A stretch of DNA of 64,000 bases from an uncultured Anaerolineae bacterium (GCA_937124585.1 CAKZKT010000051.1:16398-80397), one strand, 5' to 3'; positions 4,465 to 61,913 are shown, counted from the first letter of the stretch. Numbers and translations: made by a program. Notes: a model not told the origin generated them from the sequence alone.

Positions 4465-5475
4465 TCAATCGGGCGCGGCCTGCCGGATCCGGGGATCAAT
4501 GAGCGGATAGGCAATGTCAATGATGAAGTTTGCCACCGCTACAGAGAGGATGATCAGGAGCACGCTGCCCTGGATCACCGGATAGTCGAGGCCTTTGATC
4601 GAATTGTAAATCAGCCAGCCGAGGCCCGGATAGCCGAAGATCACCTCGGTGATCAAGGCGCCGCCGACGACGTGGCCCAGCGACAGGGCCAGGCCCGTGG
4701 CCTGAGGCAGCAACGCGTTGCGAAACGCATAGCGCCAGAGAATGCGTCGTTCGGGCAGGCCTTTGGCTTCGGCCAGCAGGATGTAGTCTTCGCCTTTCAA
4801 GGCGCCGATCAGGCTGCGCATGCTGAGGAACCACCAGCCCAGCGATACCAGCACAATGCTGAGTGCGGGCAAAAAGGCGTGGTGGAGCACGTCGGCGATG
4901 AACGGCAGCGTCAGGGCCGGCGTCATGGTCACCGAATAGTTCCCGGACAGGGGGAAGATAGGCCAATGAAAAGCGAACAGAAAGATCAGCAGCAGCGCCA
5001 GGATGTAATAGGGGGTGGCGTACAGGATCAGCGCCAGCGGAACCAGGGCCTGAAGAAACCGCGACCCGCTGCCACGCCAGCCCACCACCGCGCCGGCCAA
5101 AGAGCCGATCACCCAACTCAACAGGGTGGTCACCGTCAAGAGGCCGATCGTCCAGGGAAGCGAATTGCGGAGCAGATCCGCAACCTCCGATGGGAAACTG
5201 GCGATCGAATAGCCCAGGTTGCCCTGCAGGAGTTGGGCCAGAAAGCTGATGTACTGCTCCCACAGGCTCTTGTCCAGGCCAAAGCGGCGGGTGTATTCGG
5301 CGACCAGCTCGGTGGCGTTCATGCTGCCGCCCATCTGCGCCAGGCTGAGAAAGACGGCGCCCAGGGGGTCGCCGGGGACCAGGCGTGGCACGATGAACAC
5401 CACGGTCACAGAGATGACGATGGTGGCAATGAAGAGCGCGAAGCGCTCCGCCAGATATTTCAGGTAAGCCGCCAT
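4465..5475 (-). CDS. ABC transporter permease (OppB/DppB-like)
   Basis: Hydrophobic multi-TM protein with the ILLAEAKGLPERRILWRYAFRNALLP permease signature. Confidence 0.85.
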   Translation of the reverse strand: MAAYLKYLAERFALFIATIVISVTVVFIVPRLVPGDPLGAVFLSLAQMGGSMNATELVAEYTRRFGLDKSLWEQYISFLAQLLQGNLGYSIASFPSEVADLLRNSLPWTIGLLTVTTLLSWVIGSLAGAVVGWRGSGSRFLQALVPLALILYATPYYILALLLIFLFAFHWPIFPLSGNYSVTMTPALTLPFIADVLHHAFLPALSIVLVSLGWWFLSMRSLIGALKGEDYILLAEAKGLPERRILWRYAFRNALLPQATGLALSLGHVVGGALITEVIFGYPGLGWLIYNSIKGLDYPVIQGSVLLIILSVAVANFIIDIAYPLIDPRIRQAAPD

Positions 5476-5560
5476 GAGTCGGTTCCTTCGAGGCAGGAGA
5501 AATGGCCCTGGCTGTGCACGGCCTGCGCACAGCCAGGGCCGGAACGGATCGCAGCAGGCG

Positions 5561-7496
5561 TTACTTCACGCCCGTCGGCTGGAGGCCGCCCACCCACTTG
5601 CCGGTGGTGGGGGACTGATAGCCGGTGATGACCAGGTTAAACGTGGCCCACCAGCTGACCGGCATGTTCCACGGATCCTCGGCCGAGGGGAAGCCCTTCC
5701 AGTAGGTATAGTTGAAGGGCACCAGGGCCGGGGCCTGGACGACCGGCACCACCGGCAGCTGCTCGAACCAGATGGCCATCGCCTTCTTGTACTGCTCCTT
5801 GACCTTCTCGACCTCGGTCGGCGGGGTCTTGCCCATCTCATCTACGATGGCATCGAACTCCGCGTTCTTGAAGCGGAAGGAGTTGCGCTCGTACCAGGGC
5901 GCGGGCTCGCCCAGGGGCACGTAGTTGGCGCCATGGAAGAGCCACAGGTTATCGTAGATGTAGCCGGGGCAGAACGAATGCAGCTTGAGGTCGTACTGCC
6001 CGCGCAGCAGGGCATCGGCCAGCGGGCTGCCGGTCATGGACTGGATCTTGACACCGATGCCGGCGGCGCGCAGCTGATCGGCCAGCACCGCGGACACCTT
6101 CATCTCCTCGCCCGAGTTGCTGTCCACCACATAGATCAGCTCCAGCTTCTTGCCGTCGGCGGTGGTCCAGTCGTTGCCGACCTTCTTGAGGCCGGCGGCC
6201 GCCAGGAGCTCGGCCGCTTTCTTGGTGTCGGTCGCATCGGCAGGATACTTCGCACGCAGGTCCTGGATCGCGTCGAAGTAGGGCTTCAGGCCATCGTAGA
6301 AGGGCCACACGCCCCAGGTCGGGGTGGTCGTTCCCTCATACGCCAGGTTGACGATGGCCTTGCGGTCAATCAGGTAGGAAATCGCCCAGCGCACTTCCTT
6401 TTGATCCAGCGGCGGCTTGGCGTTCTGCACCATCAGCGCCCGCGGGCAGGGATCCAGCCAGGCATAGGGCGGATCTTTGGTCCACGCGCGCAGGTTCGGA
6501 TTGCGCCGCGCGACCTCCTTGAAGGAACCGAGCGAGAGCTTTCCGATGAAGGGGGTATCAATTTCGTTGGCGGCCAGGGCCAGCGCGATGTTCGTGTCGT
6601 CGCCGATGTACTGGAAGTTGATGGTCTTGGGGGCCGGCTTGACGCCGAAGACCTTCGTCCCCCACCAGTCATCGCGTCGCTCATAGACGAACGCGGTCTC
6701 GGTGGCGCGCACGAGCTTGTACGGCCCGGTGCCAACAGGCTGCGAGTTCTTGAAGGTCAGCGGGTCCTGGCCTTCCCAGATGTGCTTCGGCAGGATGGTG
6801 ATGCCGCCCCAGATGCCCACTGCCGGGAATGCCTCGCGGATGAGATGGAAGCGCGGGTTGGGCTTTGTGAGCTCGAACTTGACGGTGGTATCGTCCACTT
6901 TCGTGGCGGCCTTCACCCAGGTGTTCGCCTCGGCCGCCCAGGTCATGCCTGGGTTCTTCTTCAGCAGCTCATAGGTGAAGACGACGTCATCGGCCGTGAA
7001 CGGCTTGCCGTCGCTCCAGGTGACGCCCTTCCGCAGGTTGACGGTGATGCTCGTGAAATCGGCGTTGTACTCGTATTTCTCCGCCAGCCAGGGGATGTAC
7101 TCGCCGGTCTGCAGGTTGTTGTAGAAGAAGTACTCGTAGATGACCTGATGGATGCCGGTTCCAGAGCGGCTGACACCCGGCGCGTAGATGTTCAGGTTGG
7201 TGGGATCGGCCACCCGGCCACCGAGCGCGACGTTGAGGGTCTCCGCGCGCGCCAATCGTTCCGGGCTGATCGGCGCGGGCGTCGGGGTCACGACCTTCTC
7301 GACGATCTTCTCGACCGGCTTTTCGACGACCTTTTCGACGACTTTCTCGACCGGTTTCTCGACGACCTTCTCGACGACCTTCTCGACCGGCTTTTCGACG
7401 ACCTTTCTCGATGACCTGTGGCGTGGGTTGTGCACAGGCCACGAGGACACTCATGATCACGCTCAGAACGAGCACGATCCACAGTTTGGTTTTCAT
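5561..7496 (-). CDS. family-5 (peptide/nickel) substrate-binding lipoprotein with an N-terminal (V/P)VEK tandem-repeat linker; reading frame interrupted by an apparent +1 insertion near 7402
   Basis: A Shine-Dalgarno AAGGAGGAGG precedes ATG 7496, which encodes signal peptide MKTKLWIVLVLSVIMSVLVAC (lipobox LVAC) then AQPTPQVIEK. The (VVEK/PVEK)n repeat and the SBP_bac_5-like body (5561-7450) lie in the +1 frame. Confidence 0.7.
7293..7413 (-). repeat. 12-nt tandem coding repeat (about 10 units, GTCGTCGAGAAG / CCGGTCGAGAAA variants) encoding (V/P)VEK
   Basis: Direct inspection of the sequence. Confidence 0.8.
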
Positions 7497-7884: not shown

Positions 7885-9996
7885 ATGCAAAAGCAAACGG
7901 TGAAACGGCTATCCTGGTTGGCTGTGCTGTGCTTGGTGGCGCTGGCGACGGCCTGCACGTTCCCCTCGACACCCCCCAGCGCACCCGACCGGCTGCCGGC
8001 GCGGACCGGCGGTGTCACGCGATTGATCGTGGCGCCCAATCCGGACGGCGCGCAGGTGGCCGTGGACGGTGTCGTGCGCGGCAGCTCGCCGCTGACGTTG
8101 ACCCTGACGGCCGGCGATCACCTGATCGCGCTGAGCGCAGCCGGCTACGCGCCCTTCTCGGAGACGATCACCCTCGAAGCCGGCCTGGAGGCGACCTACG
8201 CGCCTGATCTGGAGGACATCGAGCCACCGACCGTCACATTGGAGAGCGAGCAGCCAGAGGCTCCCTGGTCGGGCCAGGTGCAGGTGCGCGCGGCAGCCCG
8301 CGACAACGCCGGCGTGGTAGACCTGGAGCTGGCGCTGGCCGAACGGACGCTGATGGTCACCGATGGCGAAGCGATCGTTTTCGCGCTCGCGCCGGCCACG
8401 CTGACCGATGTGCTGCCCGGTCGCACCTACACATTGACCGCTACTGCGACCGACGCTGCCGGCAACATCGGGCAGGCCTTCCTCCCCATCCTCATCGGGC
8501 CAGAGCAGGCCGCCGCCTCTGCGACGCCCACCCCGCTGCCCGCTGCGACGCCGACCGACAGCGCCACCCCGGCGCCGGCCCCGCCGACGGCCAGCCCCAC
8601 CGCGCCATCGCCGACGCCCTCGCCCCGGCCAACCCCCTCGCCGACCCGCCCGCCCGCGGTGACCTTCCGCGTGACCCAGGTCACCATCCCGACCTACGGC
8701 TATCGGCCGTTTCTGCGCTCTGTCACCGATCCGACGATGGGAGACTACGAGGTGTTGACGCTGGATCGGGCCGCCTACGAGGCGTCCGGTCCCAGGCCGG
8801 CGCCGGTCAACTACACGCTGCTCGTCCTGGAGAACCGCTATCTGCGCCTCAGCATCCTGCCGGACCTCGGCGGCCGCATCTACGAGGTGATCTTTAAGCC
8901 GACCGGCCATAACGAGCTGTATCGCAACCCGGTGATCAAGCCGACCGGCTGGGGGCCGCCCAGTCCGCCCTATCCGGCGGGCGCCAACTGGTGGCTGGCC
9001 GCCGGCGGCATCGAGTGGTGCTTCCCGGTGGAAGAGCACGGTTATGACTGGGGCAAAGAGTGGGGCTATAACTCGACGCGGCTGCCCGACGGCGGCGTGA
9101 CGGTCAGCCTCTTCACCGGCGACTACCGGCGGCCGTACGTCATGGTCAATGTGACGCTGCCCCCCGAAGCCGCCTACTTCACCGTGCAGCCCACCATCAT
9201 CAACCCGACTGCGGCGCCTGCGCGCGTGAAATGGTGGGCGAACGCCATGCTGGCGCCCGGCTCGGCCAACGCGCCCGGCCCGGAACTGCGCTTCATCTTC
9301 CCGGTCAGCGAGATGACCGTTCACAGCACCGGCGATCCGTCGCTGCCGGGGCCAGGGCAGCCGCTGGCCTGGCCGGTCCACGCAGGCCGCGATCTGAGCC
9401 GCCTGGGCAACTGGGGACAGTATCTCGGCTTTTTCGCGCGGCCCGCCGCGACGGGCGACTACATGGGCGTCTACGATCCGACGGTCGAGGAAGGGATGCT
9501 GCGCGTCTACCCCAGCAGTGTGGCGCGCGGAGCCAAAGGCTTCGCAATGGGCTGGAGCCAGCCGATCGGGCCCGAAGCGTACACCGATGACGGCTCCGGC
9601 TACGTCGAGCTGCACGGCGGCCTGGCGCCGACCTTCGACGACTGGCATCAACTGCCGCCGGCGGCCAGCATCAGCTGGACCGAGACGTGGTATCCGGTGG
9701 CCGACATCGGCGGCGTGACCTATGCTTCGGCGACCGCCGCGTTGCATCTGACGCCGGGCCAGGGCGGCCTGCGGGTGGCCCTCTTCCCGGTGAGGCCGGT
9801 GCGAGGCGAAGTGCGGATCGCCCTGCCGGATGCGGCGCCGATCGCGAAACCGGCTGACATTAGCCCGGCGCTGCCGTTCGACGAGGTGATCGCCCTGCCC
9901 GCGACCGTGCCGGCGCAGGGCGAGGTGACCGTGACCCTGCTCGACGCGCAGGGGAGGGCTGTTTTCGAGTATCGGGGGCCGGCCCGGCTGCGCTGA
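7885..9996 (+). CDS. Lipoprotein with a PEGA domain, Pro/Thr-rich linker and a large C-terminal domain of unknown function
   Basis: Signal peptide plus lipobox LATAC. PEGA-like RLIVAPNPDGAQVAVDGVVRGSSPLTLTLTAGDHLIALSAAGY. Linker PTPLPAATPTDSATPAPAPPTASPTAPSPTPSPRPTPSPT. Confidence 0.75.
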   Translation: MQKQTVKRLSWLAVLCLVALATACTFPSTPPSAPDRLPARTGGVTRLIVAPNPDGAQVAVDGVVRGSSPLTLTLTAGDHLIALSAAGYAPFSETITLEAGLEATYAPDLEDIEPPTVTLESEQPEAPWSGQVQVRAAARDNAGVVDLELALAERTLMVTDGEAIVFALAPATLTDVLPGRTYTLTATATDAAGNIGQAFLPILIGPEQAAASATPTPLPAATPTDSATPAPAPPTASPTAPSPTPSPRPTPSPTRPPAVTFRVTQVTIPTYGYRPFLRSVTDPTMGDYEVLTLDRAAYEASGPRPAPVNYTLLVLENRYLRLSILPDLGGRIYEVIFKPTGHNELYRNPVIKPTGWGPPSPPYPAGANWWLAAGGIEWCFPVEEHGYDWGKEWGYNSTRLPDGGVTVSLFTGDYRRPYVMVNVTLPPEAAYFTVQPTIINPTAAPARVKWWANAMLAPGSANAPGPELRFIFPVSEMTVHSTGDPSLPGPGQPLAWPVHAGRDLSRLGNWGQYLGFFARPAATGDYMGVYDPTVEEGMLRVYPSSVARGAKGFAMGWSQPIGPEAYTDDGSGYVELHGGLAPTFDDWHQLPPAASISWTETWYPVADIGGVTYASATAALHLTPGQGGLRVALFPVRPVRGEVRIALPDAAPIAKPADISPALPFDEVIALPATVPAQGEVTVTLLDAQGRAVFEYRGPARLR

Positions 9997-10331: not shown

Positions 10332-12587
10332 ATGACGCTGGTCTACCTCACGGTTGCCTGGTGTGTGGGCATCTGGCTGGCCCACCAGTTCTGGACGATC
10401 GGTCTGATCGGCTGCGAGACGCCCGGCTGGGCCTTCGCCATAGCGGCGATGTGCTCTGCCGGGCTTGCTATTTTATGGCGCCGGCAGCCATCTCGCCGTT
10501 GGCCCGCTGTCTTCCTGATGTTTGCCCTCCTGGGTGCCTGGCGCTACCAGCTCCGGCCATTTGTCGTCTGTCCCTCGACTACCACATTGGCGGCTTACAA
10601 TGGCTCTGTGGCCGCGCCGACTCGCGCCGTGATCGAGGGCGTCATCGTCGGCTATCCCGATGTGCGCGATACGGCCACGATCTACCATGTGCGCGCTGAT
10701 ACCCTGATCCTTGACGGTCAGGCCCGGCCCGTGCGGGGCGATGTGCGCGTCGAGGCGCCTCGTTATCCGGTTTTGGCCTACGGCGACCGGGTTCGCGCCG
10801 GCGGTCAGCTGATCACGCCGCCTTCCTTCGACGACTTCGACTACGCTGCCTATCTGAGCATCCATGGCATCCACAGTCTGCTGCGCCGCGCGCGCCTCGA
10901 GCGGATCAGCCCGGATCACGGCCATCCGCTGTGGGCGGCCCTGTATCGGCTGCGCGCTCGCGGGGCCGCCCTGCTCAATCGCGTCCTGCCGGAGCCGACG
11001 GCCGCGCTGGCGAACGGGATGCTGCTGGGCATCGAGAGCGGCATCCCCGACGCGGTGGATGAGGCCTTCAAAGTGACCGGTACCACGCATGTCATCGTCA
11101 TCTCCGGCAGCAACATCGCGCTGCTGACGGGCGTTCTCATGGCGCTGCTGGGCCGCGGCCTGGGACGAAGCCGCGCGCTGTTTCTCGTCGCCGCTCTCGT
11201 GATGCTCTATGTCCTGCTGGTCGGCGCCGACCCGCCGGCGCTGCGGGCCGGGATCATGGGCGTGCTATATGTGATTGCCATCGCGCTGGGCCGCGTGAGC
11301 ACTGCCTACGTCTCGCTCTGCGCCTCCGCGTTGGTCATGGCCTTGCTCAACCCGCTGGCATTGTGGGACGTCGGCTTCCAGCTCAGCTTTGCGGCCACCT
11401 TGGGGCTGATCCTGTTCACGGCGCCGCTCCAGGCGCGCTGCGAGCGTTTTTGCACGCGCCGGTTTTCTCCCGAACGTGCCCGCCAGATCACCGCCCTGTT
11501 GAACGACACGCTCATCGTGACCCTGGCCGCGCAGATCCTGACCCTGCCGCTGCTCGTTTACTATTTTGGCCGCCTGTCGCTGGTGGCGTTGCTTGCCAAT
11601 TTCTTGATCCTGCCTGCCCAACCGCCCATCATGGTCGGCGGCATGGCGACTTTGGCCGTGGGCCTGATTTGGGAAACGCTCGGCCGCATCGCGGCCGTGA
11701 TCCCCTGGCTCTTCCTGACCTACACGGTCACAGTGGTGCGCGGCCTGGCGACTGTGCCGCTGGCCGCAGTGGAGACGGGCGCGCTGGGCCGCCTGCTGGC
11801 CGTGCTGTACGGCGTCGGCCTGATCGGAGGACTGGCGTGGCGCCATTGGCCGCTGCTGCGCCGGATGATGCCGGCGCCGTCGGCGGCAGGGCGCTGGCTG
11901 GCGGTGGGGGGCATCTCCGGTTGGCTGATCTTGACCGCGGTCAACCAGATTCCCGATGGCCGCCTGCACATCACGTTCATCGCCGACGCGGCCGGCGAAG
12001 CGGCATTGGTGACCACGCCGACCGGCAGACGCGTCTGGCTGTGGGATGGTCGCGGCGACGGCGCCGTCCTGGCCGCCGCGACGCGCGACCAGTTGCGAAT
12101 CGGCCAGTCGGGGGTCGGCCTGGCATTCGGGCCGGATGCCGGCCGCTATTGGCCGGCTGCGCAAGTTTTCGAGCCGGCGCAGATGCCTGCCGGCAGCCGG
12201 CTGCGCCTCGACGGAGGCGTGGAGCTGACGCGGCTAGCCGCCGGCTCGGCATGGCTGGTGCGCTATGGCCGGTTTCGCACGCTCGCGCCGGCGACGCTCG
12301 CGCCGGAGGCGCAGGCCGAACTGATGCACGGCGCGCCCGCCGATCTCGCGCTCACTTTCCTGAAGGCGCCCGGCGCCGGCACTTCCACCTGGCCGACGAC
12401 CGCCTTCCTCGCCGTGACCGCGCCGCAGATCGTCCTTTGGCCGGAAGCTGCCACCTATCCGCCCGATGTCGCCGAATGGCTGAGTGGCCTGCGCACTGCC
12501 CGTATCCCCGATGAAGGCGTAGTCGAAGTGATTACCGACGGCATGCGGCTGTGGCTGCGCCAGCGCAGCGGCGTGGTGCAGCGATAA
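10332..12587 (+). CDS. comEC: ComEC/Rec2-family DNA internalization channel protein
   Basis: DUF4131-like N-terminus, a Competence domain with TGTTHVIVISGSNIALL, many TM helices, and a C-terminal metallo-beta-lactamase-like fold (HITFIADAAGEAALVTTPTGRRVWLWDG). The start is placed at ATG 10332, after the 10260 hairpin; the ORF-track GTG 10191 extension is rejected. Confidence 0.75.
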   Translation: MTLVYLTVAWCVGIWLAHQFWTIGLIGCETPGWAFAIAAMCSAGLAILWRRQPSRRWPAVFLMFALLGAWRYQLRPFVVCPSTTTLAAYNGSVAAPTRAVIEGVIVGYPDVRDTATIYHVRADTLILDGQARPVRGDVRVEAPRYPVLAYGDRVRAGGQLITPPSFDDFDYAAYLSIHGIHSLLRRARLERISPDHGHPLWAALYRLRARGAALLNRVLPEPTAALANGMLLGIESGIPDAVDEAFKVTGTTHVIVISGSNIALLTGVLMALLGRGLGRSRALFLVAALVMLYVLLVGADPPALRAGIMGVLYVIAIALGRVSTAYVSLCASALVMALLNPLALWDVGFQLSFAATLGLILFTAPLQARCERFCTRRFSPERARQITALLNDTLIVTLAAQILTLPLLVYYFGRLSLVALLANFLILPAQPPIMVGGMATLAVGLIWETLGRIAAVIPWLFLTYTVTVVRGLATVPLAAVETGALGRLLAVLYGVGLIGGLAWRHWPLLRRMMPAPSAAGRWLAVGGISGWLILTAVNQIPDGRLHITFIADAAGEAALVTTPTGRRVWLWDGRGDGAVLAAATRDQLRIGQSGVGLAFGPDAGRYWPAAQVFEPAQMPAGSRLRLDGGVELTRLAAGSAWLVRYGRFRTLAPATLAPEAQAELMHGAPADLALTFLKAPGAGTSTWPTTAFLAVTAPQIVLWPEAATYPPDVAEWLSGLRTARIPDEGVVEVITDGMRLWLRQRSGVVQR

Positions 12588-12665: not shown

Positions 12666-12717
12666 CCTGTAAACTTGCAGAACTCGCGTAAACAGACCTT
12701 TGAGCCAGGAGGAGAAC

Positions 12718-15700
12718 ATGATCATTCGCGGCAAACTGATCGCGGAAACGCCGATCTATCGAGGCAATGCTCGCAAGACACTCTTCACCCGTGACAGCGA
12801 TGGCACCCAGCGGCTGGTCTCGCTTGCGGGTGAGATCTCGGGAACGGCCCAGGCGCTGATGGACGCTTTCATCGGTCAGTCCCGCGATGGTCGGAACATG
12901 GGGCTATTGAATCGCGCCTGGCGCCGGCTCTACGGTGACCCGTTGCCCGATGGCCTGATCACGCGCGTCGAATGTCGGCTCCCGGAAGCAATGTACACGC
13001 AGGATCGCTTTTTCGACCTGCGCATGGGCCTGAAGTTGGACGAGGACCGTTGGGCGGCCGAGGCGAATGCCAACTACAAGATGGAGACCGTCTTCCGCCA
13101 TACCGGTTTCGACTTCAGCATGATGGTCAACGATGCCGTGCTGGAGCGCGGGGAAAACCGGGTCCGGCTCTACGCCCTGCTGGAGGAGATGGCGGCTGGT
13201 CGGTTCTGGTTTGGCGCCGGGAAGAGCAAAGGGCTGGGCCGGCTGCGGCTGGAAGCCGATCTGAGGAGCCTCACGCCCGCCGCGCCCGCTTTCCGTCCCG
13301 AAGTCAACCATTTGAAGATCGTGCTCCGCTTCAACGCCGATAACCCGGTGCTGGTCGGCTGGAATTGGGGCAAGGTAGATCCGGCCGTGCCGGCCTTCGC
13401 TGCCATCGAGGGCCGGTTGCTCATCGCGGCCATGCGCGACATCCCCGATCCGATCCGCCAGCGGCTCGAGCTCGTCATCGGCGGGCCCATCCTCAGCCCG
13501 GAAGACTGGAAACGCCGGCTGGCCGAGTATCTGCCGCGCGCCATCGCGCTCTGGCTTCAGGAGCGATCGAGCAGCCAGTCTGAAGTGTGGATTCTGCACG
13601 AAAACGCGCTGGCCAGGCTGGCCAAAGGCAAATACCCGCTGTCGCAGAAAGCGCTCGACGCGGTCAAGCCGCTCTGCGAGCAGCCATTTCCCGATGCCGC
13701 AGCCGCAGAAGCGGCCCTCAGGGAGCGCATCGGCAACCAGGCCAAACGCGTCCTGGAGATCATGGAACGGCAGCAGCAGGCCGGCCACCAACTTGACATG
13801 GCCGCCTGGCACGAGGTGAGCGATAGCCTGGGCCTGGATGCCACGCCGGTCGAGACGCTGGCGGCGCAGCTGGACGATGAAACGGCCCTCACCCAGACCC
13901 TCGCCGAAGCGTGTCGGCCGGTCATGGCGCGGCTCTATCAGCAGGTAGACCAGCAGGTGGATCTCCTGCGCAGCGACGCCTGGGTGGATGCCGAGATCGC
14001 CAATCGAGAGGTACATCTCAAGATCAAACAGATGCTGCTGGAGGGCAAGATCAGCGAGGCGCAATGGATGAACCGCAATCAGCCGCCCGCAGGGATCAGC
14101 CCGGCGGCCTGGCGCAGTTTCCTGGAAGAACATAGCCGGGTGCGCTATCAGCACATCATCCATCCGGCGAACCTGCGCAAGAGCATCACCAACGACCGCA
14201 ACTTCATCGCCTTCCTGCAGAGCTACCGGGCGAAGGCGCGCCAGGAACTTTCGCAGCCGTACCATGTGGACTTCCGCAGCGGCGGCCCGTTCAATCGCGA
14301 TGTTGCACGCAAATACGGCAAGCCCTACGACACCATGTTCATGCGCATGTTGACCTGGAGCCCGGCCGCGCGCGAGGGCGCGTGGGAGATCTATATCCCC
14401 GGCAGCACCATCAAGGGCGCGTTTCGCAAGCGCGCCTCGCAGGTGCTGAAGACGCTCTGGGGCGAATCGCCGCGCGTGACCGAGATTTTGGATTATCTGT
14501 TCGGCCGCCAGGGACAGCGCGGGGCCATCTACTTCTCCGATGCCTATCTGACCGATCCCACGCAGCCCGAGGAGGTCTGGTGTTCGATGGACGGCGTGCG
14601 CATGGATCCGGCGACGGCTCGCCCTGTGGAGACTGCCAAGCACGATTACCTGTTCGCCTATGGCGATCAGCTTAACTTCCAGCTGCAACTGGAGTTGCAA
14701 GACCTCACCGAGCGCGATCGGCCCGCGCTGGCCGTCCTGATCAACCTGCTGAAAGATTTCCAGCAGGGCGACATCGTCCTGGGCGGCGAGAAGACCGTCG
14801 GGTTCGGCTGGGTGAAGGCCCGCGTCAGCGAGATCACCTGGCTGACGGCCGATCCGGCCAACAAGCTGTTGGCCGATATCCTGCCCGAACGGCCCTTGAC
14901 CCGTGTCGGGCCCTGGCATCAGCTGACGTTGCGCGACGAAGAGGCGGCCGAGGTAATGTGGCGCGCGCCACTGCCCGCGGCCACCCGGGTCGAGGTCCGG
15001 CCGCCACGTGCTCGGGAAGGCTTCATCTCGCACCGGGCCTTCGGCGGCTACTCCGGCATATTGGCCGTGGAGGTCGAAGTGTTGACCCCTCTCCATGTTC
15101 GGGAGAGCGGCGAGCCATCGCGGCGCGCGGTCCTGGCCGATGGCAACGTGAACGGCTGGGACTGCTTCTCGTTCGCGCCGGCCGAGGCTGCTCTGCGGCC
15201 AGATGCCCGGCTCTACGCGCTGCCCAGCCGCAGCCTGAAGGGGTTGCTGCGCCACATCTACGCGGTCGCCAGCGACGCGAAGGGAGAGAGCCCGGCCCTG
15301 GATCGTCTGAACCCGGCCGACAGCCTGTTCGGATGGGTGGGTGCCGGCCCGAACCAGGCCATCATGGGGCGGCTGGCGTTTGGCTTTGCGCCGTTTGACG
15401 AGACGCCGGAGCTGGCCTGGTTCAAAGTGCCCTACCCCTACGGCGGCTGGATCTGCGAGAACGGCGTCTGGCGCCAGAGTACGACCAAAACGGTGCCGAT
15501 GTTCCAGATAGACAAGACCTGGCGGCTCTTCTTCCACGCGCCGCTCGCGCCGATCGTGAAGCGCCTGGAAGATTTCACGCCCGATACCGTGCAGGCCAGC
15601 TATACACGCGCGATCTTGCCGGGCGCAAAGGCGCGCTTCGACATTCGTTTCTGGAATCTGGAACAGGAAGAGCTGCAGCGCCTCATCTGGTGCATCGAGC

Positions 15701-15933
15701 TGGAGGAGGGCCTGGCGCACAAGTTGGGCCATCACCGCTATGTCGGCTTCGGCAGCGTGCGCCTGCGTATCCTGCCCGAGAGCGTGCTGTGGGACTGGAC
15801 GAAGCGCTACACCGATCAGGATGAGGGACGCCTGCCGCTGCGCGTTGCAGAGTGGTTCGAGCCCAAAGTGGTGGCGCACCGCGCGGCGCTGCTGAAGGCG
15901 CTTGATGCGCGCGTGCTGTCCGGCAATCGCTGA
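12718..15933 (+). CDS. Giant multi-RAMP fusion protein: three Cas7-like RAMP domains plus a ~300-aa alpha-helical insert (candidate single-subunit type III-like effector)
   Basis: Domain 1 (aa 1-185): beta1 MIIRGKLIAETPIYRG, glycine-rich loop WFGAGKSKGLGRLRLE (nt ~13210-13254). Domain 2 (aa ~540-715): IPGSTIKGAFRKRASQ (nt ~14394-14441), LFGRQGQRGAIYFSDAYL, glycine-rich loop GGEKTVGFGWVKA (~14785-14823). Domain 3 (aa ~785-1050): ILAVEVEVLTPLHV, LPSRSLKGLLRH (~15222-15257), LFGWVGAGPNQAIMGRLAFGFAPF, glycine-rich loop GHHRYVGFGSVRLRI. The start is ATG 12718 rather than the ORF-track TTG 12700. Confidence 0.85.
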   Translation: MIIRGKLIAETPIYRGNARKTLFTRDSDGTQRLVSLAGEISGTAQALMDAFIGQSRDGRNMGLLNRAWRRLYGDPLPDGLITRVECRLPEAMYTQDRFFDLRMGLKLDEDRWAAEANANYKMETVFRHTGFDFSMMVNDAVLERGENRVRLYALLEEMAAGRFWFGAGKSKGLGRLRLEADLRSLTPAAPAFRPEVNHLKIVLRFNADNPVLVGWNWGKVDPAVPAFAAIEGRLLIAAMRDIPDPIRQRLELVIGGPILSPEDWKRRLAEYLPRAIALWLQERSSSQSEVWILHENALARLAKGKYPLSQKALDAVKPLCEQPFPDAAAAEAALRERIGNQAKRVLEIMERQQQAGHQLDMAAWHEVSDSLGLDATPVETLAAQLDDETALTQTLAEACRPVMARLYQQVDQQVDLLRSDAWVDAEIANREVHLKIKQMLLEGKISEAQWMNRNQPPAGISPAAWRSFLEEHSRVRYQHIIHPANLRKSITNDRNFIAFLQSYRAKARQELSQPYHVDFRSGGPFNRDVARKYGKPYDTMFMRMLTWSPAAREGAWEIYIPGSTIKGAFRKRASQVLKTLWGESPRVTEILDYLFGRQGQRGAIYFSDAYLTDPTQPEEVWCSMDGVRMDPATARPVETAKHDYLFAYGDQLNFQLQLELQDLTERDRPALAVLINLLKDFQQGDIVLGGEKTVGFGWVKARVSEITWLTADPANKLLADILPERPLTRVGPWHQLTLRDEEAAEVMWRAPLPAATRVEVRPPRAREGFISHRAFGGYSGILAVEVEVLTPLHVRESGEPSRRAVLADGNVNGWDCFSFAPAEAALRPDARLYALPSRSLKGLLRHIYAVASDAKGESPALDRLNPADSLFGWVGAGPNQAIMGRLAFGFAPFDETPELAWFKVPYPYGGWICENGVWRQSTTKTVPMFQIDKTWRLFFHAPLAPIVKRLEDFTPDTVQASYTRAILPGAKARFDIRFWNLEQEELQRLIWCIELEEGLAHKLGHHRYVGFGSVRLRILPESVLWDWTKRYTDQDEGRLPLRVAEWFEPKVVAHRAALLKALDARVLSGNR

Positions 15934-15938
15934 CCGGT

Positions 15939-16811
15939 ATGCTGACACATTTCGACTGGCTACGGCGCAGCTGCAGCGGTCCGGAATTGTTGGCGACGCT
16001 CCAATACCTGGAGACCAACCCCGACCTGCCGACGGAAGACAGCGAGATGGGACCCCCGCCTTCGGCCGGGACGGCACCGTGCGCGCGCTGCTGGATCTAT
16101 CCGCGCGCGGTGGGACGCTATTGTGTCACCTGTCACGCCATCCTCGATCGTGCCTGGCGCCTGCGTGATGTCATCCCCCGGACGATCGTGATCTGGGGCT
16201 TCGTCAATCGCGTGCCCAAGGCCCGGCCGGGCCGCCAGAGCTTTGCCGGCAGCAACATCCTGGGGCAATACGTTCACGACGAGCGGCGTTTTCTGCTGAT
16301 GTTGCCGCACGACGAACTGAAGTCCTGGTTGCACGACCTGGCGCTCTACTACGGGATCGAGTTGAAGGGGCTTTTGCAGATCTTTCCGACCACGGGCGGC
16401 CGGGCGGCCCACATGGGCGACCTGCTGGTGCGCATGGTTCACCATGAAGCGCGCTTCCCGCCCGACAAGCTGCGCATTCGCTTCTTCGCCAAACTGGACC
16501 AGGTCTTCCATCCGCGACCGTACGAAAAGGAGGGCGTCCTGACCTTCGAGGCGGCCGAATTCCTGCGCACCCTGGAGCTGGCGACCGTCTTCCGCACTCT
16601 GCTGCGGCCGGATGAGCAGAAAACTCTTTACAAGCTGCTGCACATGACCGACTCCGCGCAGTCGCAGCTCTATTGGGGCCGCTTTTGGGGCCTGCTCAGC
16701 CAGGAGGCGCGCGATCTGATCAATGCCTGGGGCATCCGAACCTGGACGGAGTATCAGATCAGCCTGCTGTACGAGTTAGTGGACTATGTTGCCTTTGATC
16801 AGCCAGGTTAA
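15939..16811 (+). CDS. Hypothetical protein with an N-terminal CxxC...CxxC zinc-ribbon, translationally coupled to the RAMP gene
   Basis: CARCWIYPRAVGRYCVTCH. The ATG lies 5 nt after the upstream stop. No recognisable catalytic motifs. Confidence 0.6.
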   Translation: MLTHFDWLRRSCSGPELLATLQYLETNPDLPTEDSEMGPPPSAGTAPCARCWIYPRAVGRYCVTCHAILDRAWRLRDVIPRTIVIWGFVNRVPKARPGRQSFAGSNILGQYVHDERRFLLMLPHDELKSWLHDLALYYGIELKGLLQIFPTTGGRAAHMGDLLVRMVHHEARFPPDKLRIRFFAKLDQVFHPRPYEKEGVLTFEAAEFLRTLELATVFRTLLRPDEQKTLYKLLHMTDSAQSQLYWGRFWGLLSQEARDLINAWGIRTWTEYQISLLYELVDYVAFDQPG

Positions 16812-17826
16812 TCTGATCCGCTACCTGATCGTCTGGCGGGTGAACAGTTCGCTGGTGCACTTGTCGCGCTGTCTCGCCACCGATGTCTCGCGCACGCTCG
16901 CCATGTTGATCGCTGAGCGTCTGCCGACGCAGCAGGCGCGGCCGTGGCGCAAGACGGTGCAGCTTTGGAACAGCATCGCGGGCGATGCGGGCGCAGCCGA
17001 CGACGGCGAGGCGCAGGCGTCACCGAAACAACCGGCCTCTCAGGCGCCGGCCGATGAAGAGGCATTCTGGCCGGCCTGGCCGATCGAAGCAGTCGTGTGG
17101 CCATATCCCGGCAAGCGCATCTATGGCCAGGGCGAACCGCTCATATGGGAGCTGAAGCTGCTCGGCAACGACGCCGACCACGGCCTGTTTTTGGAGGTGC
17201 TGTTGCCGGCGATGGAAGCGGCGGCTGTCACCTCCGACGAGCGGTGGCATCGGTCGCGCACGTTGTGGGGGCGGTTCGACATTGACAGCATCTACGTCAG
17301 CCGCGGGCCGCGCTGGGAGCCGATTGCGCGCGGCGGTCGGCTCGACCTGAGCTGCCGCGTGACGCCCGTGCAGTGGGCCGAGGGGTTCGGCGAAGAGAGG
17401 CAGGAAAAGCCCCTACGGCGTCGCCTCATCTGGCTCACTCCGTTCGACCTGCCGGTGCTCGCGACGGCCGCCGACGCTCAGGACGCGACACGGCCGGCGC
17501 GACCGGCCGTGCCGGCGCTGGCCGACATCCTGGAGGCGCTGATGGAGCGGGTGGCCGGCCTGGCGGCGGGCAAACGCGCCCGCGCCGAACAGGCCTGGGC
17601 GCTCCTCTCGGCCGAAGAGCGGGCCGCCTTGCAGGAGGCTTGCGCAGCGGGCCCAGTGGTGAGGGCAGAATTGCAACGCGCCGATTGGGCCTGGCCCGGC
17701 CGCTGGATCGGCGAGCAGACCTTCCGCCAGATCGCGGCCGTCCTGTGGCCCTATTTGGATCTGGCCTCTATCGTGCACATCGGCCGCCACACCCATTTCG
17801 GCTGTGGCGCTTTCACGTTGGTCTAG
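16786..17826 (+). CDS. Cas6-like RAMP protein (putative endoribonuclease) with a C-terminal glycine-rich loop
   Basis: C-terminal ...VHIGRHTHFGCGAFTLV (nt ~17773-17823) fits the Cas6 G-phi-G-R-x-T-S-x-G-phi-G loop. N-terminal beta-alpha pattern IRYLIVWRVNSSLVHLSRCLATDVSRTLAMLIAERL. Overlaps the upstream gene by 26 nt. Confidence 0.6.
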   Translation: MLPLISQVNLIRYLIVWRVNSSLVHLSRCLATDVSRTLAMLIAERLPTQQARPWRKTVQLWNSIAGDAGAADDGEAQASPKQPASQAPADEEAFWPAWPIEAVVWPYPGKRIYGQGEPLIWELKLLGNDADHGLFLEVLLPAMEAAAVTSDERWHRSRTLWGRFDIDSIYVSRGPRWEPIARGGRLDLSCRVTPVQWAEGFGEERQEKPLRRRLIWLTPFDLPVLATAADAQDATRPARPAVPALADILEALMERVAGLAAGKRARAEQAWALLSAEERAALQEACAAGPVVRAELQRADWAWPGRWIGEQTFRQIAAVLWPYLDLASIVHIGRHTHFGCGAFTLV

Positions 17827-23826: not shown

Positions 23827-24264
23827 TCAGGCCGGGATCGTTTCATGTTCCAAGATCTCGATGAGAAAGTCCAGCAGGTCGGTGTCGGTGACGATGCCGA
23901 CCAGCTGGCCGTCGGCGACGACCGGCAGGCCGCCGATCTTGTGATTGCGCATCACGCGCGCGGCTTCCGCGATGGGCGCGCCCGGTTCGATCGTGAGCGG
24001 ATTGGGCGTCATGCACGATCCGACCTCGATATGGTCGAGGATGAAATTATCGTACCATTGCTCGCGCACCACGAACGGCGAGTTTGCGGCCCGGCGCAGA
24101 TCACGATCGGTGATGATGCCAACCAACCGGCCGCGATCTACGACGGGCAGGCGGCGAAATCCGCCCTCCCGCATCAGGTTCACAGCCGTGCGGATGGCAT
24201 TGCGGGGCGTCACCGTGACCGGATTGGCCGTCATAATGTCTGCAACCACACGTTTTGAGGGCAT
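23827..24264 (-). CDS. CBS-domain pair protein
   Basis: Two CBS motifs (VADIMTANPVTV..., EVGSCMTPNPLTI...). ATG 24264 follows a GGGGGAGGA RBS. Confidence 0.75.
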   Translation of the reverse strand: MPSKRVVADIMTANPVTVTPRNAIRTAVNLMREGGFRRLPVVDRGRLVGIITDRDLRRAANSPFVVREQWYDNFILDHIEVGSCMTPNPLTIEPGAPIAEAARVMRNHKIGGLPVVADGQLVGIVTDTDLLDFLIEILEHETIPA

Positions 24265-24464
24265 AGTCTGTCCTCCCCCGGCCGACTGTGCGCCTTTCCC
24301 GAACACCGGGCGGGAAAGGCAGGTCGCTGCGGCGGCCTTCACGCTTGGATTCTACATGTTCATTGTAGCATTGGGTGCGCCGCTTATCTATGATGCCGGT
24401 CATGCGGGGAGATACCGGGGAAAGAGGGCAATGCGAGGCCGCGCTACAGCCTCTGTGGGTGAAA

Positions 24465-24601
24465 GTCGCCCACGTGCCAGGCACTCGGCAAGATGCCTGG
24501 CACGGGAGTGGTCGCCACGTGCCAGGCACTCGGCAAGATGCCTGGCACGGGAGTGGTCGCCCACGTGCCAGGCACTCGGCAAGATGCCTGGCACGGGAGT
24601 C
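24465..24601. repeat. 3x tandem ~46-nt palindromic unit (GTCGCCCACGTGCCAGGCACTCGGCAAGATGCCTGGCACGGGAGTG) immediately 3' of rex
   Basis: Units at 24465-24510, 24511-24555 and 24556-24601. Each holds the 10-bp inverted repeat GTGCCAGGCA/TGCCTGGCAC. There are no unique spacers. Confidence 0.85.
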
Positions 24602-24610
24602 CGGCGATTT

Positions 24611-25237
24611 TCAGGCCAGGTAGTAGGTCATGCGTTGCAGGCCGACGACCGGGTCAATGTACTGCACGTGCACTCCGGGCGGCACCATGATGGTGATCGG
24701 CGCGTAGTTCAGGATCGCTTTCACGCCACCCTCGACCATGGTGCGGGCGATGGCCTGCGCGTGTTCGGCCGGCGTGGCAATGATGCCGACCACGATGCCG
24801 CGCTCGCGCAGCGTGCGTTCCAACTCTTCGACCGGCTGGACGGTCACGTGGTTGATGCCCATGATCTGGCCGATCTTCGCCGGATCGTTGTCGAAGATGG
24901 CGATGATGTTGAAGCCTTTGCCGACAAAGCCGGGATAATCGGCGATGGCCTTGCCGAGATTGCCCGCGCCCACCAGCGCCACGTCCCACATGCGGTTGAC
25001 TTTCAGGATCTCACTGAGCTGTTGACGCAGAAATGCGATATCATAGCCAGTGCCCTGCTTGCCGAATTCCCCGAAGTGCGAGAGATCCTTGCGGATCTGC
25101 GCCGAGGAGATGCCCAGCCGATCCCCTAGCTCCTGCGATGAGGTCACCTGACGGCCTTCTGCCACCAGAAAATTGAGCGCCCGCAGATACACGGGCAGCC
25201 GCCCGATCACGATATCGGGAATTGCTCGCTTCGCCAT
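24611..25237 (-). CDS. rex: Redox-sensing transcriptional repressor Rex
   Basis: [17 protein letters not shown] winged helix, a Rossmann GAGNLG NAD(H) site and [11 protein letters not shown]. Confidence 0.85.
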
Positions 25238-25433
25238 GGTCTGTTCTCCATTGTACATATTTGCCGATATGATTGCCTGCAGGTCGTACGTTGCCTGTGG
25301 CCGCCTCGTATACGGCTTGTGAATTCAGTACAAGTTATATCTTAGCACAAGTACGATCCTTGTGCAAGTCTTGACAAGACGACCTTCTGGTGCTATCGTG
25401 TTGATTCTTGGGGACATTGCTCAGGAGGATATG

Positions 25434-32635: not shown

Positions 32636-32673
32636 CCTGTGATCCTGGATTAACCCGAAAATCGTCGCTGGAG

Positions 32674-32699
32674 GTGCCAGACACTCTGCAAGATGCCTG
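32674..32699. repeat. Degenerate solo copy of the GTGCCAGGCAC...TGCCTGGCAC palindromic element
   Basis: GTGCCAGACACTCTGCAAGATGCCTG compared with the unit GTGCCAGGCACTCGGCAAGATGCCTGGCAC. Confidence 0.5.
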
Positions 32700-33465
32700 C
32701 GTAGTCCCGCGACAGCGGGGACACGTGGACACGGCTTGTTTTCATGGCTTTTTTGTGCGCAGACCGGTGCATGGGCCGCTTGTTGGTTGTGGCTACGGTG
32801 ACCTTTGCCCCGGGCGAGGCTGTTGACGGCGCTTTCATCCTGTTTTTTGTCTTTTTGGCGCCGCGCGTCATCTTTCGGACGATAATGGGCCATGCTGACG
32901 CGTTGTTGGGCAAAGCTCCGGCCTGGCGGTGATACTTGCCCGACGAAAGCCAACGTCCAGGAGGTACGCCGTGGCCTGCCGAAGACTGGAGACCATATCA
33001 AGCGCAAGACGGTCGGCAAGTATCGCGTCTGGGCGACTGAGCAAGGGCTGCTGGCGCAACGCGGCCTGCCCAGCCGGGAGGCGCTGCACCGTGGCCTGGC
33101 CGCGAACGCGTGGTCCATTCTGGCCGTGATTTGACGCCGAACCCGTCGCTGCCTCGCGTCTCAAGGCCTATGTTTAGCCCCTTTCTGTTTCCTGGCAAGC
33201 AGCCTACATCCCGGCGTCCATTGTAAGCTGAAACCCAAAAATATCAAGATGTTTTTTTCTCTCCCTCGACCTTAAACCGCGTTGCCGCGTGCGACAGGCC
33301 TGGCGGTACGCCGTTGCCCGGGCTGACGACGGGCCGGGTTTCGATCCGAGGCGGCAGCGGAGCCACCGCGGAGCTCATCGCGGATCGCCTCGCCGGCGCG
33401 GAGAGACTTGCGCTGTAAGAGACCCCCGCTGCTTGAACGCATGTCCGAACATCGGAACAATCCGC

Positions 33466-33637: not shown

Positions 33638-34084
33638 ATGCGTGATCTGGACGGACTTTCATCTACCGAGGTGGCCGAGCGGCTGGCGCGTTATGGCCCC
33701 AATGCCCTGCCTGAGCCGCGCCATCGCCTGCTGCGGCTGGTTGCCCGGCAGTTCAGCGGCATCTTCAACCTCTTCTCGCCCGAGGTGTTGCAGACCAACT
33801 GGTTCATCGCCAGCGTCATCACCGAGCTCCTGCTCCTGGCCTCCATCCGCTCCATGCTGCCCATCGAAAAGGCAGGCCGGCCGGCGCCGCTGATCGTCGG
33901 CCTCTCCGCGGCAGCTTTCGTGTTGACCCTGGCGCTGCCGATGATCCCGTGGACGGCGGCGTTCTTCGAGTTCGTCCGGCCGACGCCGGCCCACTTGGCC
34001 CTCATCGTGGCGCTGGCGACGCTCTACCTGGTCATCTCCGAACTGGCCAAGCGGCCACTGGCGCGCTTTTTGAGCAGGCCATAG
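33638..34084 (+). pseudogene. Internally deleted P-type cation ATPase (MgtA/Ca-ATPase-like) remnant: N-terminal ~45 aa fused to C-terminal ~100 aa
   Basis: MRDLDGLSSTEVAERLARYGPNALPEP... is the typical P-type ATPase N-terminus. It joins directly to the terminal TM9-10 region (...NWFIASVITELLLLASIRS...FEFVRPTPAHLALIVALATLYLVISELAKRPLARF). The ~700-aa catalytic core is missing. Confidence 0.5.
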
Positions 34085-53479: not shown

Positions 53480-54499
53480 TTGAAAGCGACCCAAGACCAA
53501 CTCCTTCTCGAAGTCAAAAACCTGCGCAAGTTCTTCCCCATCCGACGGGGTTTCCTGCAGCGCATCGTGGGTCAGGTGCGCGCAGTGGATGACGTCTCAT
53601 TCTTTATCCGGCCGGGCGAGACCTTTTCGCTGGTGGGAGAAAGTGGCTGTGGCAAGACGACCACGTCGCGTTGCATCCTGCGCGCGGTGCGGCCCACATC
53701 CGGCCAGATCCTCTTCCGCACCGGCGATGGTCGCGTGGTGGACGTGGCTGCGTTATCGGCCGACGAGCTGAAACCGTTGCGCCGCGAGATGCAAATGATC
53801 TTCCAGGATCCCTTCTCCTCGCTGAACCCGCGCATGACCTTGCTGGACATCGTCGGCGAGCCGTTGCTGGTCAACGGCATGACGGACCGGGCCGCGCGCA
53901 CCGAGCGGGTGGCCGAGCTGCTGAAGCTGGTGGGATTGCGGCCCGAGTACATGCGTCGTTTCCCGCACGCGTTCAGCGGCGGCCAGCGGCAGCGCATCGG
54001 CATCGCCCGCGCCCTGGCCCTCCATCCCCGGCTGGTCGTGGCCGACGAGCCGGTCTCCGCGCTCGACGTCTCGGTGCAGGCTCAGATCCTCAACCTCATG
54101 CTCGATCTGCAATCGGAGCTGGGCCTCACCTATCTGTTCGTCGCTCACGACCTGAGCGTGGTTAAACATATCAGCGAGCGGGTGGCAGTGATGTACGTCG
54201 GCCGGCTGGTGGAGATGGCACCCACCCAGGACCTCTTCTACACGCCGAAGCACCCCTATACCGAAGCGCTGCTCTCCGCGGTGCCGAAGCCCGACCCCCG
54301 GCTGCGTTCGAAGCGCATCGTGCTCCAGGGCAGCGTGGCCGATCCGGCCAATCCGCCGTCGGGCTGCTATTTTCACCCGCGATGTCGCTACGCGGCGGAT
54401 ATCTGCAGCCGCGCAACGCCCACATTGGTGGAGCTGGAGCCAGGACATTTCGTGGCCTGCCACCGCGCGGCCGAGCTGAAGCTGACAGGGGTGGTGTGA
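53480..54499 (+). CDS. ABC ATP-binding protein (DppF/OppF-like)
   Basis: [28 protein letters not shown]. The TTG start is taken from the ORF track. Confidence 0.8.
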
Positions 54500-54538
54500 G
54501 GCGAGCCTTCGGAATCTGAAATAACCTGAAAAATCGCC

Positions 54539-54576
54539 CAACGTGCCGGGCACCGAGAAGGGTGCCCGGCACGTTG
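54539..54576. terminator. Bidirectional 16-bp-stem hairpin CAACGTGCCGGGCACC-gagaag-GGTGCCCGGCACGTTG between convergent genes
   Basis: A perfect inverted repeat whose stem core CGTGCCGGGCAC is related to the 24465 repeat family. Confidence 0.5.
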
Positions 54577-54619
54577 GGGAATGGGTGCAGGCCCTGCATC
54601 TGTGTCGTGTGCGGTCGCT

Positions 54620-60971: not shown

Positions 60972-60977
<6 letters not shown>

Positions 60978-61044
60978 ACGAGGGATAAATGGGGGATAAA
61001 CGAGGGAAAGCTGAGGGATAACGAGGAATAAATGTGGGATAGCC
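60972..61044. repeat. Cluster of 5-6 GGATAA(A)YGRGG short repeats starting in the mfd stop codon
   Basis: cGGATAAacgagGGATAAatggggGATAAAcgagggaaagctgagGGATAAcgaGGAATAAatgtgGGATAg. Confidence 0.6.
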
Positions 61045-61506: not shown

Positions 61507-61578
<72 letters not shown>

Positions 61579-61816: not shown

Positions 61817-61841
61817 AGCTCTTCCCTCGCCGAACAAGCCA

Positions 61842-61890
61842 CAAAAATCAGGGTCGTCGCGATTTATCCTGCGACGACCCTGATTTTTTG
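61842..61890. terminator. Bidirectional rho-independent terminator (A-tract, 14-bp stem, T6)
   Basis: AAAAATCAGGGTCGTCGC-gatttatcct-GCGACGACCCTGATTTTTT. Confidence 0.8.
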
Positions 61891-61913
61891 GGCGACCACC
61901 GAGGGATCGTCCC

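Follow-up and report, generated by a model that had tools for sequence, protein, structure and literature searches.

The hairpins that lie behind the rex gene in the 64-kb stretch of DNA analysed here (the window) are best read as REP sequences of a REP/RAYT system belonging to the Anaerolineae (Chloroflexota), and the array that they form as a REP cluster, a reading to which we assign a probability of about 85%. The preliminary description had suspected a REP- or MITE-like family. This is borne out by a dispersed and mostly extragenic palindrome, by a RAYT gene that is flanked by the hairpins, by homologous RAYT genes that are flanked likewise, and by presence/absence differences between close relatives.

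The array occupies positions 24465 to 24600 (period 45, 3.0 copies, 97% matches, score 265 in Tandem Repeats Finder), with the rex stop codon on one side and a promoter-like site for the next gene on the other. The locus comprises the following features:

23827-24264, minus strand: CBS-domain gene that follows the array; near-identical contigs give it 145 aa
24362-24390, minus strand: promoter-like site TAGATA-17-TACAAT with an upstream TG, for the CBS-domain gene; the block around it is kept at orthologous loci
24458-24470, plus strand: GGTGAAAGTCGCC, imperfect inverted partner of the motif at 24603, from the sequence
24465-24600, no strand: REP cluster of three head-to-tail units, each a hairpin plus a 13-14-nt spacer from local flank sequence (Tandem Repeats Finder, unit sequences)
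24473-24504, no strand: REP hairpin 1, CGTGCCAGGCA-CTCGGCAAGA-TGCCTGGCACG, from the sequence
24518-24549, no strand: REP hairpin 2, same sequence as hairpin 1
24564-24595, no strand: REP hairpin 3, same sequence as hairpin 1, closest to rex and 15 nt off its stop codon
24601-24615, plus strand: flank motif GGCGATTTTCAGG (24603-24615), reading CCTGAAAATCGCC on the rex strand and containing the rex stop codon TGA (24611-24613)
24611-25258, minus strand: rex, redox-sensing repressor gene, longest ORF 215 aa (JGI Pfam PF06971 and PF02629)

Tandem Repeats Finder and the unit sequences (45, 46 and 46 nt) agree with the earlier account of three head-to-tail hairpin units of about 46 nt, and the proposed location at the 3' end of rex likewise holds, with the last hairpin ending 15 nt from the stop codon. 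The same account gave the hairpins a 10-bp stem; the hairpins stand, but the stem of each measures 11 bp. All three loops run in one direction, so that the units are direct repeats, and the spacers, which consist of local flank sequence, are near-identical on the rex strand (TGGGCGACCACTCC and TGGCGACCACTCC, 13 and 14 nt with a one-base difference). BIME-type alternation of REP orientation with defined linker motifs was not found in the rex array. Compared with shuffled sequences, the array region folds much more strongly on both strands (z = -7.4 and -7.8). In the minimum-free-energy fold, GGTGAAAGTCGCC and the motif at 24603 can furthermore pair, giving an outer stem with A and T tracts around the array.

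Neither JGI nor our own coding-potential caller calls a gene over the array between rex and the CBS-domain gene, and the six-frame ORFs in this region are thus artefacts, as had been supposed. The homologs of rex are named "redox-sensing transcriptional repressor" by their sources, and the representative of the Rex cluster (P0001) has 208 aa, which makes 25237 the likely start. An Rfam search of the whole window at the gathering score returned two tRNAs only, and a search of 24200-24700 at E up to 10 gave nothing near the gathering score, only chance-level microRNA-like matches.

The number of units at this locus differs between assemblies. Four public contigs (L001, L235, L236 and L238) that encode the same 208-residue Rex P0001 carry four units, compared with three in the window. 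A full-length comparison of L001 with the window gave 99.99% identity over 20.6 kb and zero mismatches; the L001 array lies at 10664-10831. A fifth contig (L237, ENA k141_180388) passes into unrelated sequence after the first unit. Taken together, this suggests that the unit number is either variable or unstable in assembly; the three and four units may reflect either true copy-number or rearrangement variation or an assembly artefact (collapse). Hairpin arrays of this kind can break or collapse short-read assemblies, as the unit counts here and the end of another contig (L054) within the array illustrate. Where it varies, the unit number of a REP cluster could serve as a strain-typing marker.

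Comparison of the rex locus among relatives reveals rapid turnover. A contig with a 98%-identical Rex has a single REP at the same spot, with a different loop and upper stem and different flanks, whereas contigs whose Rex is 89-90% identical have no REP, each carrying its own ordinary GC-rich hairpin right after rex. We therefore regard the REP as a recent, fast-turning-over occupant of the terminator slot. The downstream promoter block is kept wherever the CBS-domain gene adjoins rex (L216, L219, L220 and L221); in L217 and L218 another gene follows rex. We also considered that the element had supplied the rex stop codon, as a TGA lies inside the CCTGAAAAT motif, but dropped this idea because hairpin-free relatives are partly similar there (TGATCATCGCG in L221, AAAATCGG in L219).

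Beyond the array, the window is enriched in the palindromic word of the stem. With at most one mismatch, GTGCCRGGCAC occurs 23 times in the 64 kb against 6.7 expected, a count that none of 100 shuffles reached. Two further loci carry the element:

32650-32776, plus strand: decayed composite element of about 125 nt (blastn-short, nhmmer, alignment to the composites of L006 and L012)
32651-32664: its left motif, TAACCCGAAAATCG
32673-32698 plus 32720-32725: its degenerate REP, the 3' arm split by a 21-nt insert at 32699-32719
32738-32776: its right module (nhmmer E = 0.03)
54522-54538, plus strand: flank motif TAACCTGAAAAATCGCC adjoining the 54537 REP, also present at the rex array and at 32651
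54537-54578, no strand: solo REP with a G-C central pair, a perfect 18-bp stem and a 6-nt loop

The degenerate copy noted earlier at 32674 is real: 24 of the 26 bases at 32674-32699 are identical to the array unit, loop included (blastn-short E = 4e-5; nhmmer E = 0.008), and the composite around it aligns end to end with elements on other metagenome contigs. The "longer relative" that had been placed at 54539 between convergent genes also proved to belong to the family. It spans 54537-54578, between genes at 53480-54499 (plus strand) and 54620-55711 (minus strand), and corresponds to the G-C central-pair variant of the family pattern, ACGTGCCRGGCA-N10-TGCCYGGCACGT; its stem of 18 bp contains the 12-bp family stem (54541-54552 with 54563-54574). 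CGATTTTTCA comes next on the minus strand, where the copy fits the stem plus T-run pattern of a terminator. With these loci, three are known in 64 kb of the source organism, and at least three further contigs come from the same sample. Small unannotated ORFs and a 148-aa ORF (33638-34084, plus strand) adjoin the decayed composite in what had been called a decay zone; in the 148-aa ORF, a cation-transporting P-type ATPase is represented by its N- and C-terminal Pfam domains alone, and the ORF is therefore probably a gene remnant.

The hairpins of the family follow the pattern (A)CGTGCCAGGCA-N9/10-TGCCTGGCACG(T). The REP unit is a near-perfect palindrome of 33-34 nt, ACGTGCCAGGCA-C(T/C)T-N3-4-A(A/G)G-TGCCTGGCACGT, in which a lower stem of 12 bp is conserved in sequence and an upper stem of 3 bp covaries. 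More specifically, 98% of the copies have an A at -1 and 97% a T at +1, and these pair with each other, which sets the conserved stem at 12 bp. The 9-10-nt "loop" is made up of the 3-bp extension and an apical loop of 3-4 nt. Its position 2 and the partner base covary as T-A or C-G: 39 of the 49 distinct loops are Watson-Crick paired here, compared with a mean of 24.9 and a maximum of 35 in shuffles. The lower stem hardly varies except for compensatory changes of the central pair, to G-C ten times and to T-A five times.

An exact-pattern scan of metagenome contigs returned at least 162 hairpins on at least 120 stretches, and a stricter pattern, applied to one genome per GTDB species, returned at least 94 stretches. 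Controls with shuffled 12-mers gave 0-1 matches, as opposed to 82 for the real consensus. All but one of the genome matches listed are Chloroflexota MAGs of the class Anaerolineae (with the labels Thermoflexales, Thermoflexus, Caldilineales and Anaerolineales). Among these matches several MAGs have many loci, with at least 16 in one and at least 13 in another, and the flanks of ascertained copies contain about one further copy per 50 kb. The family is therefore not genome-specific, contrary to what the preliminary description had proposed, since an identical 12-bp stem is found in many Anaerolineae MAGs of several orders and in many metagenomes. A literature search with the 11-mer returned only unrelated eukaryotic primer and promoter papers.

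Tandem arrangement is not restricted to rex. We found at least 16 further arrays of 2-8 units with a period of 44-60 nt, mostly within about 25 nt of a called stop codon, and each has its own spacer of local flank sequence. Published REP clusters are singletons reiterated in tandem together with flanking DNA, and intragenic REPs have been described as well (PMC3733652); the array-specific, flank-derived spacers match this description.

The position of the copies relative to genes was assessed with gene calls from our own simple and rather crude coding-potential caller. By these calls, 181 of 229 sites (about 80%) lie outside ORFs, and the intergenic sites include 95 between co-directional, 35 between convergent and 12 between divergent genes. 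Most hairpins begin 1-30 nt after the upstream stop codon (median about 19). The search for copy number and bias towards gene 3' ends that had been proposed for the genome was carried out on metagenomes and GTDB genomes, and it returned many copies that are largely outside ORFs and near stops.

The remaining 48 sites are inside ORFs; many of them fall at over-extended ORF starts, and 13 lie deep inside. Eleven of these 13 copies have a length of 33 nt (a 9-nt loop), compared with 57 of 165 intergenic copies, and nine are in the frame read as VPGTxEVPGT; the insert amounts to 11 codons. One Chloroflexota MAG encodes an RsmB/F-type rRNA methyltransferase with two in-frame REPs (L178, 3663-5081, minus strand). 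Neither an 89%-identical ortholog nor any more distant one has the first insert (proteins P0241-P0246), and the second is common to the three closest sequences only. Presence and absence between close relatives, here and at the rex locus, indicate that REPs insert. The orthologs P0244 and P0246 have different, repetitive Gly/Arg-rich inserts at the same two loops, and these loops seem tolerant of repeated insertion. For annotation, the hairpins both create spurious ORFs and add VPGTxEVPGT peptides to real proteins.

A Y1/HUH transposase was found among genes that are bracketed by two hairpins. An ORF on contig L068 (1980-2555) matches Pfam Y1_Tnp with 46.7 bits (cut-off 23) and NCBIfam REP_Tyr_transpos with 78.5 bits, just under the curated cut-off of 80, and has both the HUH motif (NHFHF) and the tyrosine motif YIHRNP. 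It is flanked by the hairpins ACGTGCCAGGCA...TGCCTGGCACGT and ACGTGCCACGCA...TGCGTGGCACGT, and the same RAYT gene with the same flanking hairpins is present on a 44-kb contig, L232. REP/RAYT systems have as their hallmark a transposase gene between the repeats (PMC3733652, PMC3116915). At E below 1e-20 the protein has 5713 homologs, many of them named RayT or transposase by their sources, and the named organisms among them are Chloroflexi/Chloroflexota or Anaerolineae MAGs. A tblastn search that covered the window and a further 1.5 Mb of fetched loci matched a RAYT in L068 alone.

Hairpins likewise bracket the RAYT gene at five homologous loci (L222, L225/L226, L228, L229 and L231). One hairpin precedes the start codon by about 20-50 nt, and the other ranges from an overlap with the stop codon to a position about 6 nt past it. 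The flanking hairpins of L222, L225/L226, L228 and L229 have a 12-bp stem and a 9-nt loop, and those of L231 a related stem with a much longer loop. Their stems include lineage-specific bases (AGGTGCGACGCA, ATGTGCGACGCA, ACGTGCGACGCA and AGGTGCCACGCA). In two assemblies (L231 and L232) the RAYT gene lies directly downstream of a class-I aminoacyl-tRNA synthetase gene (tRNA-synt_1, Anticodon_1, DUF5915), an arrangement that points to a conserved place in the chromosome, in line with what vertically inherited RAYTs would show.

These features resemble the REP/REPIN-RAYT systems of Proteobacteria, such as the REP/BIME sequences of E. coli and the REPINs of Pseudomonas fluorescens. Shared are a palindrome of 20-40 nt in many dispersed, mostly extragenic copies near 3' ends, the occurrence as singletons and clusters, a single Y1/HUH transposase gene flanked by the repeats, and the conserved neighbourhood of that gene (here, after the class-I aminoacyl-tRNA synthetase in L231 and L232). 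There are also differences. Two REP superfamilies have been described, with a GTAG or a CGTC tetranucleotide by the hairpin (PMC3733652). In contrast to the Proteobacterial REPs, the Anaerolineae family lacks the unpaired GTAG tag; we found no conserved unpaired GTAG or CGTC beside the hairpin and nothing conserved beyond the A at -1 and the T at +1, the outer stem itself reading (A)CGTG with the variants (A)GGTG and (A)TGTG. The stem is perfectly palindromic, and each of its arms is a palindrome in turn. Due to this symmetry, it is impossible to read which way a copy points, and hence whether copies form the usual inverted doublets (REPINs). Clusters are direct and head-to-tail, unlike alternating BIMEs or inverted REPIN doublets, and the stem is identical across several orders of the class, whereas Proteobacterial REPs are specific to species groups.

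Within the same phylum, the GTAG-23 REPs of Thermomicrobium roseum (Chloroflexi) are largely clustered (Di Nocera et al. 2013, PMC3733652), but they belong to another class (Thermomicrobia) and have the GTAG tag; the same paper mentions no Anaerolineae REP family (PMC3733652). With no GTAG or CGTC tag, a palindromic stem and a stem shared across orders, the hairpins are a distinct family of a known kind of element, previously undescribed in Anaerolineae. The reach of REP/RAYT is thereby extended to a large, mostly uncultured class that is known mainly from MAGs. The intragenic copies also recall the Rickettsia palindromic elements (RPE) and intragenic REPs, in that in-frame palindromic inserts add a short peptide; in contrast to RPEs, of which RPE-1 is much longer, only a minority of the copies are intragenic here (about 13 of the 229 sites lie deep in ORFs), and none in the window.

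By analogy with the known systems, we propose that a single-copy HUH/Y1 tyrosine transposase, the RAYT, would recognise the folded hairpin in single-stranded DNA and spread REP copies round the genome. Surviving copies would then be found mostly just past stop codons and occasionally as in-frame 11-codon inserts in genes. At rex, one REP with a few flanking bases would have been reiterated in tandem, presumably through slippage or unequal exchange between hairpins, so that the cluster would come to fill the slot that ordinary terminator-like hairpins occupy in REP-free relatives. As a secondary role, the cluster could provide the 3'-end hairpin of the rex transcript, acting as a barrier to 3' exonucleases and/or as a terminator; judged by its position, this 3'-end role is the most likely candidate. 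The use as terminator or mRNA stabiliser that had been suggested for the array is a plausible candidate role. The array stems are followed by no T-run and the rex array has no terminator-like site, so that canonical intrinsic termination is not predicted and an exonuclease barrier or a non-canonical terminator is likelier than a classical terminator. Across the family, too, T is not enriched directly after the stem. The 54537 copy looks like a classical terminator from its sequence and is the only copy in the window that fits the canonical pattern. As a group, the REP hairpins offer a natural set of 3'-end hairpins for the study of transcript ends in Chloroflexota.

Several alternatives to a REP/RAYT system were weighed. 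The hairpins could be non-mobile, lineage-specific intrinsic terminators or 3'-end hairpins, kept in sequence by selection for termination or mRNA stability. A terminator motif of conserved sequence has reportedly been found in Mycobacterium tuberculosis, and the concentration of copies 1-30 nt past stops, the excess of convergent (35) over divergent (12) sites, the ordinary hairpins that REP-free relatives have in the same slot behind rex and the stem plus T-run of the 54537 copy would all suit such an explanation. Rho-independent terminators, including bidirectional ones, are indeed GC-rich hairpins just past stop codons, and A and T tracts accompany both the 54537 copy and the extended subfamily described below. 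In most REP copies, however, including those of the rex array, no T-run adjoins the stem, and termination does not require the identical 12-bp sequence that recurs across loci, genomes and several orders. In-frame copies within real genes that are absent from close orthologs, and a RAYT gene flanked by the hairpin, argue further against this explanation, which we consider improbable.

Still less probable is that the element acts as double-stranded DNA, each hairpin then being a pair of operators bound by a dimeric regulator, perhaps Rex, or by a nucleoid protein. Such a site would account for the palindromic arms (GTGCC-N-GGCAC), for their distance of 21 bp centre to centre, equal to two helical turns, and for a lower stem that is conserved in sequence beyond what pairing demands. 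Yet the covariation of the upper stem points to a folded single strand, and the sites lie past stop codons, outside promoter regions, at hundreds of unrelated loci and even inside genes. Nor do they resemble the Rex operator, TTGTGAA-N-TTCACAA. Nor were lone arms seen to have built up within the 64-kb window, where a single exact one, GTGCCAGGCAC, lies at 1284-1294 over long ORFs with no partner arm nearby, and may be a chance occurrence or a remnant. We give the least credence of all to a CRISPR-like array whose RNA would be processed by Cas6 and which would be linked to type III-like cas genes about 7 kb away; of this, the preliminary description had raised recognition of the hairpin RNA by a Cas6-like RNase. 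CRISPR-associated genes of this type do lie at about 12700-17826 on the plus strand (a 1071-aa RAMP protein, a 290-aa protein and a Cas6-like protein with a weak match to PF10040), and the hairpin units are of CRISPR-repeat size. The spacers of 13/14 nt, however, are near-identical rather than unique, so that the rex array is not a CRISPR array; Tandem Repeats Finder detected no CRISPR array in the window, and the hairpin occurs solo at many loci of many MAGs and flanks a transposase gene. Near-identical spacers and a genome-wide family in many MAGs thus speak against a Cas6 substrate.

Further readings of the motif were set aside. A sigma-54 promoter reading of TGGCAC failed on inspection, as the GG-N10-GC spacing is absent and the flanks vary between copies. 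A small ORF running through the hairpin (MKM..VPGT..AWHV..) was rejected because copies differ in how its frame lies relative to the hairpin. DNA-uptake sequences, with inverted pairs of a conserved word, were also considered; the window has only the one lone arm, and the RAYT association fits the family better.

Part of the family extends beyond the hairpin. A flank motif, CCTGAAAA(A)TCGCC or its reverse complement, is present at all three window loci, and CCTGAAAAT / ATTTTCAGG arms lie beside 29 of the 229 sites (about 13%, against a background of 0.4%). About 15 sites have an additional conserved second module ending in GCGCATGRNCAACTGA. The full composite of about 115 nt consists of a CT(A/G)ACCTGAAAAT arm, the REP, an ATTTTCA / ATTTTCAT arm and a second hairpin ending in GCGCATGRNCAACTGA, and is represented by 32650-32776 in the window and by L006, L012, L014, L052, L088, L141, L172, L177, L186 and L203. 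It recurs at unrelated loci of one MAG as well as across MAGs, and its right module is found almost only beside REPs. The composite often starts at or over the stop codon of the upstream gene, and in several cases stops immediately short of the Shine-Dalgarno sequence and ATG of the following gene. Copies of the extended subfamily lie between an A tract and a T tract.

A tentative and rather unlikely reading of this extended form is that of a separate, non-autonomous mobile cassette around the REP, which would bring to gene ends a stop codon together with a bidirectional terminator and, possibly, a leader for the gene that follows. In that case, the window copies at 32650 and 54522, like the array behind rex, would have arisen by insertion of the cassette rather than of a bare REP. 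Rfam returned nothing relevant for six composite-bearing loci, and the right module matches no Rfam family. On L006, an Rfam DUF3800-IX RNA (8356-8434, minus strand; 58.8 bits, gathering score 36.8) is unrelated to the REP on the same contig. A sigma-70 promoter reading of the right module was abandoned, as no consistent -35/-10 pair could be placed; in L172 the module has TATAAT where the others have CATGRG.

The window also contains repeats that are unrelated to the family. A 12/36-nt tandem repeat, ACGACCTTCTCG..., with 3.5 copies of the 36-nt unit (7290-7417), overlaps long ORFs on opposite strands (5474-7414, plus; 5561-7450, minus) and is probably a coding repeat. Another tandem repeat, GGATAAACGAG, with a period of 11/22 and about 6.5 copies (60972-61041), lies about 470 nt upstream of a tRNA gene (61507-61578). 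Finally, an inverted repeat at 61838-61893 has 23-nt arms (GCCACAAAAATCAGGGTCGTCGC / GCGACGACCCTGATTTTTTGGGC) and both an A and a T tract, and resembles an ordinary bidirectional terminator.
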